A stretch of 64,000 nt of DNA from Candidatus Hadarchaeum sp. (GTDB lineage: Archaea > Hadarchaeota > Hadarchaeia > Hadarchaeales > Hadarchaeaceae): assembly GCF_049969415.1 (NCBI RefSeq), contig NZ_JBMFOX010000002.1, positions 41,467 to 105,466 of the forward strand. Reading direction: 5' to 3'. A program made the translations under genes and the position numbers. Each line of letters starts with the position of its first letter. Position 1 is the stretch's first letter. Positions 2,476 to 61,650 of the stretch are shown here, in pieces. The notes under the pieces are model-generated. The model saw only the letters and a program-made list of their open reading frames with translations. It had not been told where the DNA came from and made no database searches.

Positions 2476-4386
2476 TTAAATTACTCCCCGGTTAAAGTGT
2501 CCCGTTGTATAACCTTTCCTTATTTTGCAGTCGTCAAATGGTTCGAAGTTCAATATTTTTCGATAGATGCGTATGAACCTATCGACGTCCTTCTCTACGT
2601 CGATATAAAAATATTTTATGTCGGCTCGGACGTAGTCGCGAGCCTTGTTGAACAAACCCAGTTGTTTCCAGTTTAGTATTTCTGTTATGCCGTGGTTGTT
2701 TCTGACCCTGAAACGTCTGCCCTGCTCGTCGATGAGTTCCTTGGCCTTCAACTTCTGCCTACTGTTCATTAATACGATGTCACCGTGGATCATCACGATG
2801 AAACGCTTGTTCTTCAGCGAGACCATTTCTCGGAAATTTAGTTCTGGAGAGATGATGGGGATGCCCGGGTAGCAGCTGAGATCGACGTCGTTGAAACAGT
2901 TGAAGGAATAATCCAAGTGGATGTCGATCCCATTCAAAAATGGCAACAGCCCCCGATTACCGACCAGCACACCTTCGGGGCCTATTTGTTTTATTTCTTC
3001 AGCGATTTCAACCAGACGTTGATCCGAGATTATTCGCGGGGTGTAGACGAAGAATCTAGATTTCTTCACCAAGTTTTTAACTTCCCTGCAATCTTCCTTG
3101 AGGACATCGTAGTAAACCACGTCAGCACCAGCTTCTTCGGCGGCTATCGCCATTTCGCGATTGTAGACCTTAGCAAAGATTTTGACAGCCGAATTGTTTT
3201 CAACTGGTTTAAAGCTGGGCAGCGTGATTTTGTTCGTTTTCAAGGTTGCTTTTACAGGTTTTATTTCATCGCCCAGTTCAAGCCTAATGTCAACAGATGA
3301 GGTTTTGTATATCAGGGAGCCGTCATCCGCTCCCCTAGTGTCTATCTCAACCTCGTCACCGGCAAAAGCCTGTTCCACCTCAACGCCGTCTTTTAAAATT
3401 CTGCCTACCTTGTATCCCCGAATTTCCTCGTTGATCCAGATGGCCACCCCATCGCCGATTTTCAGGCCGGCCCTTAGTCTCAACTTGCCGCCCTTGATAC
3501 AGCCAAGAAACAGACCCCGGTTCTTCGGACTTTTTGAGTCCACGATGTTGTCGTTGAAGGCGAAGCCGGTGGTGAACCCCCTGTTGAAGACGACCATGAG
3601 GTCTTCGATGTCCTTTTTATCAACCTTGAAATTCCCCTGATAATAGGCGTCGATGTATTTGTGATAGATGCGAGCCACCGTGGCTACATAGAGCGGGCCC
3701 CTCAGCCGCCCCTCGACCTTCAGGGACTTAACGCCGGCCTCGATTATCTCGGGAAGCTTTGGCAATAGACAGAGGTCCATGGTACTCAGCGGATACTTGT
3801 TGTTGTATTTCTTCCGGCAGGGCTGGGCACACATTCCCCTGTTGCCGCTCCTGCCACCGGCGATTGAGGAGAAGAGACATTGCCCGCTGTAGCTAAAACA
3901 AAGTGCCCCGTGGACGAAGACTTCCGTGGGGAATTTTTGAGACATGGCCTTTACTTCCCCGTAGGATAGCTCCCTAGCGAGAATGACTCGGTCGATGCCC
4001 TTAGGTATCGAATAGCTGTTGACCGTTGTTGCCTGCGTGGAAAGATGGATCTCCAGACCGGGGAAGTTTTGCCTGATCAACGGGATGAGGCAATGGTCTT
4101 GGATAATGATGGCGTCAGCTCCAGCAGAATAGGCCACGTTAATCAGCTTGAAGTAGTCCTCAAGTTCATCATTTTTGACTAGGGTGTTGAATGCCACGTA
4201 AACCCTGACTTTTCTTTCGTGACAGTAATTCACGGCACTGAAGATGTTTTTCTCGTTGAAATTTTCGGCCAACATTCTGGCGTTGAATTTGCTCAGGCCG
4301 AGATAGACGGCGTCGGCTCCATTTTTTACCGCGGCCCTTAGGCACAGCTCATTGCCAGCAGGCAGAACCAGTTCCACTTTCGACAT
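2476..4386 (-). CDS. Peptidase U32 family Fe-S protein (RlhA/TrhP-like RNA hydroxylation)
   Basis: GADAVY, HLSTQ, EVFVHGALCFSYSGQC, GNRGMCAQPCR, SLKVEGR. Confidence 0.9.
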   Translation of the reverse strand: MSKVELVLPAGNELCLRAAVKNGADAVYLGLSKFNARMLAENFNEKNIFSAVNYCHERKVRVYVAFNTLVKNDELEDYFKLINVAYSAGADAIIIQDHCLIPLIRQNFPGLEIHLSTQATTVNSYSIPKGIDRVILARELSYGEVKAMSQKFPTEVFVHGALCFSYSGQCLFSSIAGGRSGNRGMCAQPCRKKYNNKYPLSTMDLCLLPKLPEIIEAGVKSLKVEGRLRGPLYVATVARIYHKYIDAYYQGNFKVDKKDIEDLMVVFNRGFTTGFAFNDNIVDSKSPKNRGLFLGCIKGGKLRLRAGLKIGDGVAIWINEEIRGYKVGRILKDGVEVEQAFAGDEVEIDTRGADDGSLIYKTSSVDIRLELGDEIKPVKATLKTNKITLPSFKPVENNSAVKIFAKVYNREMAIAAEEAGADVVYYDVLKEDCREVKNLVKKSRFFVYTPRIISDQRLVEIAEEIKQIGPEGVLVGNRGLLPFLNGIDIHLDYSFNCFNDVDLSCYPGIPIISPELNFREMVSLKNKRFIVMIHGDIVLMNSRQKLKAKELIDEQGRRFRVRNNHGITEILNWKQLGLFNKARDYVRADIKYFYIDVEKDVDRFIRIYRKILNFEPFDDCKIRKGYTTGHFNRGVI

Positions 4387-41070: not shown

Positions 41071-41579
41071 GACGCGGCATAATAACCGAGAGGAAAGGAG
41101 TAAGTGATGTTTTATCAATAGCTTTCATGTTTTTGATAGTAGTCTTTGCCGGGGTTCTTTTGCACAGCTATCGTCTTGGGGCGATAGATTCAGCAGTCAG
41201 CCGGCAGATGCAGCTGAAAGCCGAGTACCTTTACAGGGCCCTTGAACTATCCCAAGTGGAAAACTACTCACTCAGCTATCTTGCCGCCGTTGCCGAGAAC
41301 GTGATTGGGGTATCACCCCAAGTAGTCCCAGGAGACTATCTCCGGTCTCGGCTTGATGTTCTTTTGTCTTATTTGCGTCCTTCCGGCTATGGGGTTGTTT
41401 TTGAGGTCAGGCACGAGAACTCAGTTTGGGTCCAGATCAGCCCTAGCGACAGTGGACCACCTAGCCCTAACGTGGAGAAGTTTTCCTTTTCAGGAAAGTA
41501 TACTATTGTGGTCGCAGGCTTGGCTGAAAACAGAGTGGCGCAGGCCGAAGCCACCATAACGCTGTTCAGAAAGGGGTGA
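41058..41579 (+). CDS. Pilin-like protein with class III signal peptide
   Basis: ERKG|VSDVL plus hydrophobic helix. Confidence 0.75.
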   Translation: MAGLRRGIITERKGVSDVLSIAFMFLIVVFAGVLLHSYRLGAIDSAVSRQMQLKAEYLYRALELSQVENYSLSYLAAVAENVIGVSPQVVPGDYLRSRLDVLLSYLRPSGYGVVFEVRHENSVWVQISPSDSGPPSPNVEKFSFSGKYTIVVAGLAENRVAQAEATITLFRKG

Positions 41580-41585
41580 TAGTGA

Positions 41586-42263
41586 ATGGATGAGTTGGGA
41601 TCAGCCGAACTGCTGGCGATATTCACGGTCTTTGTAATTCTTTCCAGTCTTGCGGCACTGAATACCTTTGAATCCGGTTACACGCGCCAGATCGAGTTGT
41701 TGCAAGAAAGGATGGCGGTTGACACCACTAGGGCCGTGGCTCTTGCTGTTGAAGCGGAACTGAATGATTCCCTTAGATCCGCAGTGGCCGCGGCCATGTT
41801 TGAGGCCGGTAAGTTTGCCGGATCAAAGGCAGAGGTGGAGTCACGCTTGCGAAACTACTTTAACCAGCGCATTGCCGCAGGGTGGTCCTACTCCAATTTC
41901 GATAATATCTACGTCCCGTTGAGCGATGAAAACTCGTTACAAATTGAGTGGCTACCTGATGGAGGCGTCCGCGTCTACGGCTATCTGGGGGCGAGCTTTA
42001 GCCATGTGTCCGGGGCCAAGGCCTTTGGAGTCAAGCTGGATGCTGGCGTTACCCCCCGCTACGGAAGAATGCTTTATCTAGCCAACTTGGCCTACGGCTG
42101 GGCACAGAAGGCAGCGGATATCGAGGCATTGGAAAGGGAGCTCAACGAGAACTATGCGGCGGAGATGTTTTCGTTCCACATTTACCGCGAAAACGGTGCC
42201 TTGAAGCTGACCATTACGGAGCTGTACGGCGGGCGGGCGATAACCCCGGAAGGCGAGGGCTGA
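41586..42263 (+). CDS. Pilin-like protein with probable class III signal peptide
   Basis: MDELG|SAELL plus hydrophobic helix. Confidence 0.65.
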   Translation: MDELGSAELLAIFTVFVILSSLAALNTFESGYTRQIELLQERMAVDTTRAVALAVEAELNDSLRSAVAAAMFEAGKFAGSKAEVESRLRNYFNQRIAAGWSYSNFDNIYVPLSDENSLQIEWLPDGGVRVYGYLGASFSHVSGAKAFGVKLDAGVTPRYGRMLYLANLAYGWAQKAADIEALERELNENYAAEMFSFHIYRENGALKLTITELYGGRAITPEGEG

Positions 42264-42318: not shown

Positions 42319-43659
42319 ATGAGAAGGGTTGAGATATTGACCAAGGACGAGATAATCCAGACGGTGGAAAAGGAAGGCATCAAGTTCATCCAGATGCAGT
42401 TCACCGACATTTTGGGCACGGTGAAAAATGTCACCATTCCCGCCACCAAGATCGAAAAGGCGTTGGACGAAGGAGTCTTCTTTGATGGTTCTTCTGTTTT
42501 AGGCTATGCCACCATCGAGGAATCTGACATGCGCCTGATGCCGGATCCGGAGACTTTCGTGATCATTCCATGGTTGCAGGACAATCTTAAGACGGCGCGG
42601 ATGGTCTGCGATGTGTATGACCATGAGGGCAATCCATTTGAAGGAGATCCGCGGGCGGCATTAAAGCGGCAGCTGGAAAGGGCTAGGAAAAAGGGGTGGA
42701 TTTTTAACACGGCTCCTGAGTACGAGTTCTTTTTCTTGATGTTGGATGAACAGGGGCTGCCCACAACCAGACCTTCAGATTCCGGCGGTTACTTTGACCT
42801 CATGCGGGACAGGGGAGACCTCATCAGAAAGGAAATAGTTAACTACCTTAATCTGATGGGATTCGATGTGGAGGCTTCGCATCATGAGGTTGCCCCCGGA
42901 CAGCATGAGATAGACCTCATGTACACCGATGCCATGACCTCAGCCGATAGGGTGGCCATGATGAAGTACGTCACCAAGAATATTGCCTACCGCCACGGGC
43001 TCTACGCCACCTTCATGCCCAAGCCAATTTACGGCGTCAACGGCTCGGGAATGCACGTTCATCAGTCGCTCATGACGCTTGAAGGGAAAAATGTGTTTTA
43101 CGATCCTAAGGGTCCGTACAAGCTGAGCAAGTATGCGCTTTACTTCATCGGTGGGCTCCTGAAGCACGCCAAGGAAACCTGTGCCATTTTGGCTTCGACG
43201 GTTAACTCCTACAAGAGGCTGGTTCCCGGATATGAGGCCCCAGTTTACATTTCTTGGGCGAACAGAAACAGGAGCGCTTACATTCGCGTTCCGGCGGGCA
43301 GGGAATCCCACACCCGCATTGAGTTGCGAAACCCTGACCCTGCAGGCAACCCCTACCTCCAGTTCACGGTGATGTTAGCCGCCGGGCTAAAGGGGATCGA
43401 GGAGAAGATAGAGCCTCCGGAGCCTGTGGAAAAGGACATCTACCACATGGGCACCGAGGAGCGCGAGGCTTTAGGCATCGAATCGCTTCCGGAGAACTTG
43501 GGGCAGGCGCTGGATTATATGCGCCGGAGCCAGCTGGTAATGGATGCGCTGGGTGAGCATCTGTTCAAGCACTTTATCCATGTCAAGGAGAAGGAGTGGG
43601 AGAGCTATCGAGCCCACGTGAGCGATTGGGAACACAAATTTTTGTTGCCAGCGCTGTAA
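42319..43659 (+). CDS. glnA: Glutamine synthetase type I
   Basis: FDGSS, HHEVAPGQHEI, TFMPKP..NGSGMH.HQS, NSYKRLVPGYEAP, RIELR.PD. Confidence 0.98.
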   Translation: MRRVEILTKDEIIQTVEKEGIKFIQMQFTDILGTVKNVTIPATKIEKALDEGVFFDGSSVLGYATIEESDMRLMPDPETFVIIPWLQDNLKTARMVCDVYDHEGNPFEGDPRAALKRQLERARKKGWIFNTAPEYEFFFLMLDEQGLPTTRPSDSGGYFDLMRDRGDLIRKEIVNYLNLMGFDVEASHHEVAPGQHEIDLMYTDAMTSADRVAMMKYVTKNIAYRHGLYATFMPKPIYGVNGSGMHVHQSLMTLEGKNVFYDPKGPYKLSKYALYFIGGLLKHAKETCAILASTVNSYKRLVPGYEAPVYISWANRNRSAYIRVPAGRESHTRIELRNPDPAGNPYLQFTVMLAAGLKGIEEKIEPPEPVEKDIYHMGTEEREALGIESLPENLGQALDYMRRSQLVMDALGEHLFKHFIHVKEKEWESYRAHVSDWEHKFLLPAL

Positions 43660-43689
43660 TCAAAAAATTTAGTATTTTTGATTTTTGGC

Positions 43690-43889
43690 GCGGGGACGAT
43701 CGCGAAACTACTCCGCGGCGGCTCGGTTACCCAGCCGCGCTTTCGTTTCGAGATCTTTATCCGACATCCATGCTTCGGTACACACTGCCGTGACCTTATC
43801 CACGGCCTCCCCCAGCTGCGCTGAGTTTTTCCGTGGATCCCCCGAACCCGTGGGTTCGAGTTCAGCCTGTTCTGTCGGCTTATCCCCGC
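43690..43889 (-). ncRNA. Unassigned structured ncRNA, copy 1 (200 nt)
   Basis: GC-rich island in an AT-rich spacer; terminal 7-bp stem GCGGGGA/UCCCCGC; nested stems with GNRA loops on the minus strand; own promoter; structural paralogue at 58616-58849. Confidence 0.8.
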
Positions 43890-43912
43890 AATTTCCATTT
43901 AACAAATTTTTA

Positions 43913-43927
43913 ATAATAAATTTTTCG
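43913..43927 (-). promoter_or_regulatory. BRE + TATA promoter of ncRNA copy 1
   Basis: Minus strand CGAAAAA TTTATTAT, with the TATA at -31 to -24 from the first G of the terminal stem. Confidence 0.7.
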
Positions 43928-43989: not shown

Positions 43990-45252
43990 TTACGGGAAGA
44001 GACCCAGTCTTTCTTGGGCGTCTATTACCCTTTTGACACCGAGGATGTAGGCGCCTGTGGGCAAATCAACTTGGTATTCATTCGCAGTCTTTGAAGCGTC
44101 GTGGTAAGCTTTCACCATGTGATTTTCTAGTTTTTGGTTGACCTCGCTTTCGCTCCAGTGCTCTCGGTGGAGGTTTTGTATCCATTCAAAATAGCTGACG
44201 GTAACCCCACCTGCGTTGGCCAGGATATCGGGAACGACGAGCACTCCCTGCTCGTGCAATATTTCCCTAGCTTTTGGCGTGCTGGGACCATTCGCGCCCT
44301 CAGATATGATTTTTGCCTTGATTTTGCTCGCGTTCGCCTCGGTTATCACGTTTTCCATCGCCGCCGGTACCAGAATATCGCACTCTAGCTGTAGGAGTTC
44401 TTCATTGGTAATCTCCTCTCCGCGGCCGAACCCACGCAACTTACCTGTTTTCTCCTTGTGTTTTATCGCGGCTTTGACATCAAATCCCTTCGGATCGTAG
44501 ATGCCGCAGGTTGAGTCGCTCAAGCCAATTATCTTACAACCCATCTCTTCGAGGACCGCCGCTGCCCACTGGCCGACGTTGCCAAAGCCCTGAACCACGG
44601 CCGTTAGTCCTTTCATTTTCAGCCCCAGTTGTTTGGCGGCCTCTCTGGCACAGATGGCCGCACCGCGTCCGGTCGCTTGTTTTCTCCCCTCAGAACCGCC
44701 GAGTTCAATCGGCTTTCCGGTGACGACTTCAGGTACCATATAACCCCTGAGCTGGCTGTAAGTGTCCATTATCCAGGCCATCGTTTGGGCATCGGTGTAC
44801 ATATCCGGAGCCGGCACATCTTTGAAGGGGCCGATGTCGTCAAAGATCATGGCAGTATATCTTCTCGTCAATCTTTCAATTTCACCCTTCGACAACTGTT
44901 TTGTATCCACAGTTACGCCACCCTTGGCCCCGCCGTAGGGTATATCAACCACGGCGCATTTCCAAGTCATCCACATCGCCAGTGCCTTGACTTCGTCCAT
45001 GTCGACTTTCGGATGGTATCTTATGCCTCCCTTGAAAGGACCTCTAGCGTGGCAATGCTGGACTCGGTAGCCGGTAAAAACCTTTATTTCCCCGTTGTCC
45101 ATGCGCACGGGAACGGAGACAATAATTGTTCGGCGTGGGTGTTTTAATCTTATAGTTACACAAGGGTCCAACTTCAATATTTCTTCAATAATTTCCAATT
45201 GTTCTACCGCGGCTTTGTATGGGTTTAAATTGCTTGCCGTAATGTCACCCAA
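43990..45252 (-). CDS. gdhA: Glutamate dehydrogenase
   Basis: RGPFKGGIRYHP, MTWKCA, GGAKGG, DVPAPD, VQGFGNVG, NAGGVTVSYFEW. Confidence 0.97.
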   Translation of the reverse strand: MGDITASNLNPYKAAVEQLEIIEEILKLDPCVTIRLKHPRRTIIVSVPVRMDNGEIKVFTGYRVQHCHARGPFKGGIRYHPKVDMDEVKALAMWMTWKCAVVDIPYGGAKGGVTVDTKQLSKGEIERLTRRYTAMIFDDIGPFKDVPAPDMYTDAQTMAWIMDTYSQLRGYMVPEVVTGKPIELGGSEGRKQATGRGAAICAREAAKQLGLKMKGLTAVVQGFGNVGQWAAAVLEEMGCKIIGLSDSTCGIYDPKGFDVKAAIKHKEKTGKLRGFGRGEEITNEELLQLECDILVPAAMENVITEANASKIKAKIISEGANGPSTPKAREILHEQGVLVVPDILANAGGVTVSYFEWIQNLHREHWSESEVNQKLENHMVKAYHDASKTANEYQVDLPTGAYILGVKRVIDAQERLGLFP

Positions 45253-58605: not shown

Positions 58606-58615
58606 CAAATAAAAA
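58606..58615 (-). terminator. Oligo-U terminator of ncRNA copy 2
   Basis: Minus strand UUUUUAUUUG directly after the terminal stem. Confidence 0.55.
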
Positions 58616-58849
58616 GCGGCAGGGACTCGATCCCTCCACTACTCGTCCAGCGAGCTTGCGAATCTCGACCACTTCGCTCACTCGCCGTCTTTTCGTGTTG
58701 GGATCTTTTTCCTGCAGTCGCTGTCTCGTCCCGTTCCCCCACGGGACTTACCCGCGTCCTTCCCCGGTTTTTCGCCCGGGTTTTTACACGGGTCCCCGTT
58801 GCCCGTAGGCTCCGGTTCGACCACCTCTGCAGGCTTTGATCCCTGCCGC
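58616..58849 (-). ncRNA. Unassigned structured ncRNA, copy 2 (234 nt)
   Basis: 10-bp terminal stem GCGGCAGGGA/UCCCUGCCGC; cUACGg tetraloop; same stem order and junction motifs as 43690-43889; own promoter and U-tract. Confidence 0.8.
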
Positions 58850-58870: not shown

Positions 58871-58886
58871 TTTTTAAAGATTTTTT
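58871..58886 (-). promoter_or_regulatory. BRE + TATA promoter of ncRNA copy 2
   Basis: Minus strand AAAAAATC TTTAAAAA, with the TATA at about -29 to -22 from the first G. Confidence 0.65.
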
Positions 58887-59032
58887 GCCAAGTTGAGATA
58901 TTTCAGAATTGGGAAATGTGAAAAAAGATGATTGTTTCAGTAATTCGGATTTTATTTCACCCGATTTTGTAATTTTGCATTTTTATTTGGCCGGAAGAAG
59001 AAGCGATTGGAAAAGAGCAAAAATAACTGAAC

Positions 59033-61549: not shown

Positions 61550-61650
61550 TGGTGCGGGGGAGGGGATTTGAACCCCCGAACTCCTAAGAGACCAGATCTT
61601 GAGTTACGCCCGGCTGTCTGGCGCCGTTGACCTGGCTTGGCTACCCCCGC
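61550..61650 (-). tRNA. tRNA-Leu(CAA) with encoded CCA and a 13-nt intron at position 30/31 (61605-61617)
   Basis: GCGGGGG acceptor, D-loop, anticodon arm CCAGA-CUCAAGA-UCUGG after intron removal, long variable arm, GUUCAAAUC T-loop. Confidence 0.95.

Follow-up and report, generated by a model that had tools for sequence, protein, structure and literature searches.

In a 64,000-nucleotide (nt) stretch of a Candidatus Hadarchaeum sp. genome (contig NZ_JBMFOX010000002.1, forward-strand positions 41,467–105,466), the spacer between the convergent genes glnA and gdhA contains the RNA element studied here, which we call copy 1. The genome comprises 1.47 Mb in 138 contigs; the stretch, hereafter the window, is part of its contig C2, and coordinates given without a contig or locus name are those of the window. 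Pfam confirmed the two flanking genes, glnA at 42319–43659 (+) and gdhA at 43990–45252 (−). The original prediction had described a GC-rich island in an AT-rich spacer at this position, and our results agreed: GC content was 0.60 over 43685–43891 versus 0.27–0.35 in the spacer on the gdhA side, with the coordinates as described.

The features of copy 1 are listed below. Helices are numbered from P1, the closing helix; MFE is the minimum free energy structure; R1 is a covariance model built on 19 orthologues including copy 1 (210 positions, 60 pairs); BRE is the transcription factor B recognition element; and the promoter and stop elements were read from the sequence.

43690–43889, minus strand: class-A RNA core of ~200 nt, from the 5′ strand to the 3′ strand of P1, identified by its fold, an R1 score of 211.4 bits and covariation

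43884–43889, minus strand: 5′ strand of P1 (GCGGGG); in this helix 7/7 pairs changed on both sides and 99% of alignment cells were paired

43761–43878, minus strand: 5′ domain in the MFE and consensus structures, with P2 (43878–43874 with 43765–43761) and P3 (43866–43864 with 43774–43772)

Within the 5′ domain, minus strand: hairpins of the four-way junction, P4 (43860–43842), P5/P5a (43836–43800) and P6 (43795–43777)

43698–43755, minus strand: 3′ domain, with P7 (43755–43744 with 43708–43698) and P8 with its GG-GUAA-CC cap (43732–43725)

43913–43927, minus strand: BRE-like CGAAAAA followed by the TATA box TTTATTAT, −38 to −24 from the first base of P1

43662–43667, minus strand: T6 run (TTTTTT), probable transcription stop, 23–28 nt beyond P1

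The 211.4 bits of copy 1 are not independent because copy 1 was part of R1; independent support came from a second copy in the window, from copies of two further classes (B and C), and from covariation.

The ends of copy 1 coincide with its closing helix. On the minus strand, GCGGGG at 43889–43884 pairs with CCCCGC at 43695–43690 to form P1, and thus the interval that was originally predicted is exactly this helix and its contents. Folding of the minus strand gave an MFE of −101 kcal/mol. The mean for 200 shuffled sequences was −72.1 (sd 4.4, z = −6.5), and 0/200 were as good; the fold of the plus strand was much weaker (z = −3.2). The fold contains 12 helices, one three-way and one four-way junction, and an internal loop resembling loop E. 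In copy 1 this loop consists of GAAAG (43744–43740) opposite GGAGUAG (43714–43708), and the P5/P5a hairpin has a 5+5 internal loop of AAAAA/GGAGG. The AGUA/GAA arrangement of the P7–P8 internal loop, which we take to be a loop E (bulged-G) motif, was kept in classes A, B and C. The GNRA loops that had been predicted were borne out in part: GG-GUAA-CC is found at 43732–43725, and P6 does end in CAC-GGCA-GUG, but its GGCA departs from the strict GNRA pattern and the tetraloops vary in the orthologues.

Covariation demonstrated the fold of copy 1. RNAalifold analysis of an orthologue alignment derived from BLAST yielded 46 pairs, and in 25 of these both partners had changed. When 44 copies of all classes (43 distinct sequences) were aligned to the model, 47 of the 60 pairs had changed on both sides; that is, because compensatory changes preserve the structure in so many pairs, the observation is far more than chance. 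In helices 2–7, 92–99% of cells were paired and 27/36 pairs had changed on both sides. Across the same alignment, 92.5% of cells formed standard pairs versus 36–42% when the partners were slid by 1–3 columns, and none of 500 shuffles reached the observed value. This alignment was fitted to the covariance model, and hence we added a structure-blind check using a plain MAFFT alignment of 27 class-B sequences. The check gave 97.4% paired cells and 38/60 pairs changed on both sides (0/500 shuffles as high). A covariation screen for further pairings or pseudoknots returned only register shifts of the known helices. We concluded that the fold of copy 1, with P1, a three-way junction and two arms, is real.

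Across the family, P1 measures 6–9 bp, is made by both ends of the RNA and closes the three-way junction. Arm 1 consists of P2, P3 and then the four-way junction with its three hairpins (P4, P5/P5a, P6), where P4 carries a stable tetraloop and P5/P5a a symmetric A-rich/G-rich internal loop. Arm 2 consists of P7, an internal loop of GAAA(A) opposite GAGUA, and P8. The classes differ at the tip of this second arm: in classes A and C, P8 is capped by a 2-bp GNRA mini-hairpin, and in class B it is lengthened by P8a, whose 10–11 nt loop contains the invariant UGGUCGAG. The junction strands are purine-rich and were kept in all classes (AAG before P2, GAAC, GGGGAG, AUAAG, and GAAAAAG before P7).

The transcription signals of copy 1 lie where they had been predicted. 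The TATA box TTTATTAT occupies 43920–43913 (−31 to −24 relative to G43889), with CGAAAAA before it. The T-run shortly downstream is TTTTTT at 43667–43662; it abuts the glnA stop codon and shares the glnA terminator region on the opposite strand. From the TATA spacing, transcription of copy 1 probably starts at or just before 43889, and the primary transcript of ~225 nt would probably stop at the T6 run. On one strand the bases at 43662–43689 are the class-A RNA's 3′ tail, and on the other they are the terminator region of glnA, so the convergent RNA and glnA transcripts could overlap by 10–25 nt.

Similar signals accompany the other members of the family. A TATA-like hexamer was found at −25 to −36 before P1 in 50 of 53 distinct loci, whatever their neighbours. 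In 45 of the 53, four or more consecutive T begin no more than a few bases past P1; the eight exceptions were all class A and included copy 1. A scan for sigma-70 promoters and hairpin terminators is bacterial in type and hence uninformative for an archaeon. The promoter and stop signals argue for independent, possibly regulated, transcription units. Together with the conservation of the element, these sequence features upheld the original view that the minus strand encodes a noncoding RNA under promoter and stop signals of its own, as opposed to a 3′ untranslated region of gdhA.

The second copy named in the original prediction exists, at 58616–58848 (−), scoring 96.7–100.9 bits (E about 1e-25). 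We searched the window with R1 without filters and obtained copy 1 (211 bits), copy 2 (58619–58847 on the minus strand, 96.7 bits, E = 5e-25) and a next match of only 10.4 bits. BLAST missed copy 2, giving only short chance matches in the copy's own genome; the paralogues therefore needed a covariance model. Folded alone, copy 2 reached an MFE of −122.9 kcal/mol (z = −9.0), and its helices were the same as those of the comparative model. Its features are as follows.

58616–58848, minus strand: copy 2, a class-B paralogue of 233 nt with extended P8/P8a and the invariant loop UGGUCGAG (R1 score 96.7–100.9 bits)

58871–58880, minus strand: TATA box of copy 2, TCTTTAAAAA, −33 to −24 from P1

58895–58905, minus strand: ATAT-centred quasi-palindrome TGAAATATCTC at about −59, a class-B-specific upstream element

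58611–58615, minus strand: T5 run directly after P1 of copy 2

The covariance model found three copies in this genome, two in the window and the third on contig C13. The GGAGATATCTCC-like quasi-palindrome lies upstream of the class-B BRE/TATA at both of the genome's class-B genes (window 58895–58905 on the minus strand; contig C13 of this genome, G000, ~3965–3975) and at loci L079–L091. Of the 19 class-B loci in the taxonomic family to which the genome belongs, 17 carry it at −58 to −62, and related, non-identical motifs occur upstream of class-B genes in other families. The element is a candidate site for a dimeric transcription factor. We rejected it as a regulon marker, since within this genome only the two class-B genes have it in a promoter setting.

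We used R1 and a class-B model, R2, to follow the RNA through other genomes. E-values from these searches are rough because calibration was shortened; most of the genomes are incomplete metagenome-assembled genomes, so missing copies are weak evidence; and related genomes are not independent, so counts across genomes overstate the support. A BLAST search with a 216-nt stretch gave one match each in 21 of 36 other genomes of the same taxonomic family and none in 24 more distant genomes. Within the genus, BLAST detected the element in 6/7 other genomes and the model in 7/7, in agreement with the predicted presence in close relatives. R1 matched 40/46 genomes of the taxonomic family (f1), with 1–5 copies in each, 51/65 genomes of the order and 51/66 of the phylum Hadarchaeota. 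The RNA was single-copy in families f2 (6/6 genomes), f5 (3/3) and f3 (1/1); in family f4, 1/9 genomes had a match; and the only genome of the sister order had none (0/1).

Searches outside the phylum used genome samples and one strict pattern. With R1, four genomes of other phyla and the sister-order genome gave nothing significant, the only match at E ≤ 10 scoring 8.5 bits, and R2 gave no match in 38, 61 and 61 genomes of three other archaeal phyla. The exact pattern of the class-B 3′ domain matched 35 stretches when one genome per species was searched for 185,579 species. The titles of these 35 named Hadesarchaea, Hadarchaeota, Hadarchaeales, Hadarchaeum or Hodarchaeaceae, or (in two cases) 'uncultured archaeon'. 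The same class-B pattern had 0 matches on viral contigs. The family was not found outside Hadarchaeota in the genomes searched.

Scores, lengths and a FastTree tree of 46 copies defined three classes; the tree was midpoint-rooted and lacked support values and so serves as a guide only. Class A (205–212 nt) comprises copy 1 and divergent forms in two genera, class C measures ~208 nt, and class B, at ~233 nt, is split into two clades. Clade 1 of class B is linked to polB, which encodes a family-B DNA polymerase, and includes the single copies of f2 and f5. Clade 2 lies between a geranylgeranyl-reductase-like (GGR) gene and a DRG-type GTPase gene. Copy 2 resides beside IscS/NifU and clusters with the GGR-linked copies of its genus, and in the tree it looks like a genus-level duplicate. 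Class B is probably ancestral. Class C and class B genes occur in tandem, ~85 nt apart, in nine genomes; these pairs are arranged head-to-tail, each gene having its own TATA box and T run (G036:C85:7878–8402, G064:C168:6064–6588, G031:C64:45629–46153 and six more genomes).

Pfam scans of flanking open reading frames (ORFs; 135 + 18 = 153) showed that each class has neighbourhoods of its own, unrelated to those of the other classes, and that the RNA often lies tail-to-tail with the gene that follows. At the nine class-A loci, glnA was adjacent in four and one gene away in three, always tail-to-tail. It was thus within 1.5 kb in 7/9, and a glutamate-synthase-like gene was present at an eighth. 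Gene gdhA was adjacent in only 2/9, namely in this genome and one congener. Of the glnA–RNA–gdhA gene order, which the original prediction had proposed to check in relatives, the glnA side was widely kept at these loci but the gdhA side was not. Other genes flanking class A were MoeA, topoisomerase IB, an aldehyde:ferredoxin oxidoreductase and a cation-efflux gene. The topoisomerase is of eukaryote type (L045:1–1365, minus strand; Topoisom_I E = 1e-65, Topoisom_I_N E = 1e-58) and adjoins the class-A RNA in one Hadarchaeota genome. A protein of 225–234 amino acids (aa) with a hydrophobic N-terminus and no Pfam match accompanies the neighbourhood of glnA and the class-A RNA (40% identity between genera; window 41586–42263 (+), L061:694–1398 (−), L065:1818–2504 (+)).

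A different arrangement was seen in class B. In all five of the f2 and f5 loci whose downstream side was scanned (L092, L093, L094, L097, L101), a co-oriented polB starts 27–45 nt after P1, and locus L089 of the family f1 has the same arrangement. At two other class-B loci of f1, a HAD gene on the opposite strand lies between the RNA and polB. The polB of the present genome is located outside the window, at C2:24993–27428, with no copy of the RNA upstream. The gap between the RNA and polB consists mostly of a T run (L092:2973–3001, L093, L094:3233–3275, L097, L101; L089:3233–3240). No transposase, TnpB/IscB, reverse-transcriptase or Cas genes were detected by Pfam among the 153 flanking ORFs.

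These neighbourhoods bear on the nitrogen-linked regulation that the original prediction had raised. A riboswitch-like or nitrogen-sensing role was not supported: copy 1 and glnA are convergent, no gene of the same orientation follows the RNA, and the same fold lies beside polB, the geranylgeranyl-reductase and GTPase genes, and IscS/NifU. What is left of the nitrogen link is synteny, which would be compatible with inherited gene order, and the position of copy 1 between glnA and gdhA should not be taken to indicate a nitrogen riboswitch.

Copy 1 did not belong to any RNA class that we searched for. At the gathering score, Rfam 15 had 0 matches over the whole window, and in E-value mode (E ≤ 10) the regions around copy 1, copy 2 and one copy from another taxonomic family gave only 11–19-bit matches to unrelated families. 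Archaeal RNase P RNA (RF00373) had no match at the locus, and the genome's own RNase P RNA lies at C1:28967–29254 (196.1 bits); RNase P type T (RF02357) gave nothing above the cut-off, its best match in the genome scoring 12.9 bits elsewhere. Likewise, archaeal signal recognition particle (SRP) RNA (RF01857) did not match the locus, the genome's own being at C16:17850–18157 (156.9 bits). The 5S rRNA model (RF00001) had no match at E ≤ 10 around copy 1, copy 2 and that copy from another family; 5S genes are on contigs C6 (93 bits) and C119 (80 bits). These two 5S genes, C6:21605–21725 and C119:401–515, lie on different contigs, contamination of the genome is estimated at 2%, and they could represent two loci or a strain or contaminant variant.

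ARAGORN called 0 tRNAs in the window without introns, and with introns allowed made no call at the three loci. A D-arm reading of the fold was excluded because the long-range helices P2 and P3 covary, and a reading of the P7/P1 linker as a tRNA T-loop was dropped by eye, the linker being only 1–2 nt in this genus. Elsewhere in the window, ARAGORN reported a tRNA-Leu(CAA) with a 13-nt intron at 61550–61650 (C2:103016–103116, minus strand), only when introns were allowed; neither Rfam at the gathering score nor ARAGORN without introns reported any tRNA in the 64-kb window. Inspection by eye for H/ACA and C/D guide RNAs found no C/D boxes, no K-turn (tandem G-A) held across sequences and no ANA box at H/ACA distance. 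The strands of the internal loops are invariant and so unlike guides, as judged by eye against the consensus features of guides. The glutamine riboswitch (glnA RNA of Rfam) did not match at the gathering score or at E ≤ 10, and by eye the junction strands do not fit the consensus of a hammerhead core.

Protein coding was also rejected: ORFs of 65–97 aa overlap copy 1, but no frame was open across the 19 orthologues, in which indels of 1–2 nt occur, and five ORFs tested over both window copies had no Pfam match. A transposon guide RNA (omega or bridge) was rejected in turn, because the 153 flanking ORFs had no TnpB/IscB-type Pfam match and synteny was stable per class. As for a cis-acting leader, no gene in the orientation of copy 1 lies downstream of it, the next gene being the convergent glnA, and the position of a leader was occupied only by the polB-linked copies of other genomes. 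Copy 1 has the P1 three-way junction, the P3 four-way junction, the AGUA/GAA loop, and its own TATA box and oligo-T that mark the new family. We rate it as a member of a new RNA family outside every Rfam family, an 'orphan structured RNA' being in itself a familiar situation. No such Hadarchaeota RNA was described in the titles and abstracts covered, which took in neither subscription journals nor catalogues of RNAs other than Rfam, so an earlier description is possible.

Several known RNAs offer comparisons. 5S rRNA resembles the new RNA in having a closing helix formed by its ends, a three-way junction, and a loop-E-type arm that ends in a small capped hairpin, a likeness that is topological only. 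In contrast, the new RNA is about twice as long as 5S rRNA (~120 nt, helices I–V), and its other arm bears a four-way junction. Archaeal RNase P and SRP RNAs are likewise stable, GC-rich, multi-helix RNAs of 200–320 nt with their own promoters, but both are encoded elsewhere in this genome, and the new RNA was seen in a single phylum, where some genomes of good quality lack it. The f2 and f5 copies are like a riboswitch or leader in lying directly upstream of polB with a U run after the RNA, whereas most copies of f1 have no downstream gene on the same strand, possess their own promoter and stop, and have no recognised expression platform. Y RNAs, vault RNAs and the 6S-1/6S-2 pair provide no more than an analogy, that of several diverged paralogues per genome with a common core fold and a single differing module, here the tip of P8.

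Further parallels are the Hgc RNAs of hyperthermophilic archaea and the OLE, raiA, ROOL and GOLLD RNAs of bacteria, which are stand-alone genes with complex covarying folds and conserved unpaired purines, had no function known at discovery, and are sometimes multi-copy. A GC-rich island in an AT-rich spacer is the signal that was used for the Hgc RNAs. All of these differ from the new RNA in phylum and architecture, and those in Rfam gave no match at the thresholds used. To our knowledge, very few classes of large structured RNA have been described in archaea apart from rRNA, tRNA, RNase P, SRP and guide small RNAs. RNAs of this complexity have usually proved to be ribozymes, ligand sensors or cores of ribonucleoproteins. 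RNA-only assemblies of such orphan RNAs are a subject, at least in part, of a 2024 preprint (10.1101/2024.12.08.627333).

We favour, with some reserve, the interpretation that copy 1 is a stand-alone ~205-nt class-A RNA of a new Hadarchaeota family that has its own promoter and stop, forms a trans-acting particle, and goes back to a class-B gene beside polB that was later duplicated. Copy 1 would be transcribed from its own BRE/TATA and end at the oligo-T. Once folded, it would form a stable particle that works in trans, be it a ribonucleoprotein or RNA-only, as opposed to a cis-regulator of glnA or gdhA. The family would have begun as a single class-B gene beside polB, and within f1 duplication may have produced classes A, B and C, since kept in separate conserved neighbourhoods. 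A role in trans is suggested because for most copies there is no gene that could be regulated in cis, because the paralogues keep one core and swap one peripheral module, and because the junctions are conserved in the way of protein-, ligand- or RNA-binding cores.

Several points weigh against this interpretation. The transcript of the RNA, its ends and its abundance are predictions from DNA sequence alone. In two other families, the single-copy RNA lies 27–45 nt upstream of polB on the same strand; a cis or leader role fits these loci at least as well as a trans role because little room is left for a separate polB promoter. Five genomes that are 90–95% complete, from two genera, had no copy even at E ≤ 1 with R2 (one match of 11 bits, E = 0.7), so the RNA is either not indispensable to the phylum or has diverged past the models. 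Lastly, the closeness of glnA to class A in 7/9 loci makes a link to nitrogen metabolism possible.

The polB loci lead to the strongest rival, in which the ancestral class B is a leader or riboswitch-like cis-regulator of polB that controls read-through of the oligo-T, or translation, in response to a ligand or protein (e.g. the polymerase), and stand-alone copies such as copy 1 are orphaned duplicates or regulate otherwise. The co-oriented polB at 5/5 f2 and f5 loci and at L089 fits this idea, as do the T run directly after P1 and the many conserved unpaired purines, which are typical of ligand-binding RNAs. However, copy 1, copy 2 and the GGR-linked copies lack a co-oriented downstream gene, this genome's polB has no copy upstream, and an opposite-strand HAD gene intervenes at two loci. 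No alternative pairing with the start region of polB was evident by eye, and 205–235 nt is large for an aptamer. We consider this explanation unlikely; a leader function at polB could coexist with a role in trans. The invariant unpaired nucleotides in every junction across classes could instead be the active site of a new ribozyme that cleaves or ligates itself or another RNA, and its size is in the range of small group I introns and of type T RNase P. The lack of an Rfam ribozyme match, of a hammerhead core fit, of an interrupted host gene and of a covarying pseudoknot makes this quite unlikely.

A nitrogen-linked regulatory RNA, in which class A responds to nitrogen status and modulates glnA or gdhA, e.g. 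through overlapping convergent 3′ ends, would explain the glnA within 1.5 kb at seven class-A loci, the adjacent gdhA at two, the glutamate-synthase-like gene at one more, and the RNA 3′ tail that overlaps the glnA terminator region on the opposite strand. We regard it as very doubtful, since the RNA converges on glnA and is not upstream of it, genes intervene in 3/7 of the glnA-linked loci, the fold is common to classes B and C in unrelated neighbourhoods, and the Rfam glutamine riboswitch was unmatched. A GC-rich island of this size is what stable RNAs of archaea typically form, and the loop-E three-way junction recalls 5S topology; still, a very divergent housekeeping or guide RNA (RNase P, SRP, 5S, tRNA-like, H/ACA or C/D) is highly improbable, because RNase P, SRP and 5S RNAs score well elsewhere in the genome, no sub-threshold match to them was seen at the locus, no tRNA was called, and by eye C/D boxes, a K-turn, and an ANA box at H/ACA distance were missing. 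Barely credible is a mobile-element RNA (an omega, bridge or retron-type guide) or a small protein gene, which would account for the multiple copies, some in tandem ~85 nt apart, and for the overlapping ORFs of 65–97 aa. Synteny was stable per class, no mobile-element or Cas Pfam family occurred among the 153 flanking ORFs, the class-B pattern had 0 viral-contig matches, and the overlapping ORFs were neither conserved nor matched in Pfam.

Returning to the trans-acting particle, we tentatively suggest, as a possibility that we ourselves hold to be doubtful, that the family is the core of a new archaeal RNA particle (a phylum-specific ribonucleoprotein, an RNA-only assembly or a ribozyme) with a dedicated promoter element and specialised paralogues, whose ancestral gene is co-transcribed with the family-B DNA polymerase. 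The RNA combines 205–235 nt, 12 covarying helices, conserved junctions and its own promoter architecture with up to five diverged paralogues per genome of 1–1.5 Mb, kept across most of an uncultured phylum of the deep subsurface and hot springs. The family is small, thermostable and well defined, and thus amenable to in vitro folding, cryo-EM (cryogenic electron microscopy) and binding screens, with adjacency to polB as a concrete first hypothesis. If this suggestion is true, co-transcription with polB would suggest that the RNA serves DNA replication or nucleotide metabolism in a capacity that no known RNA class fills.

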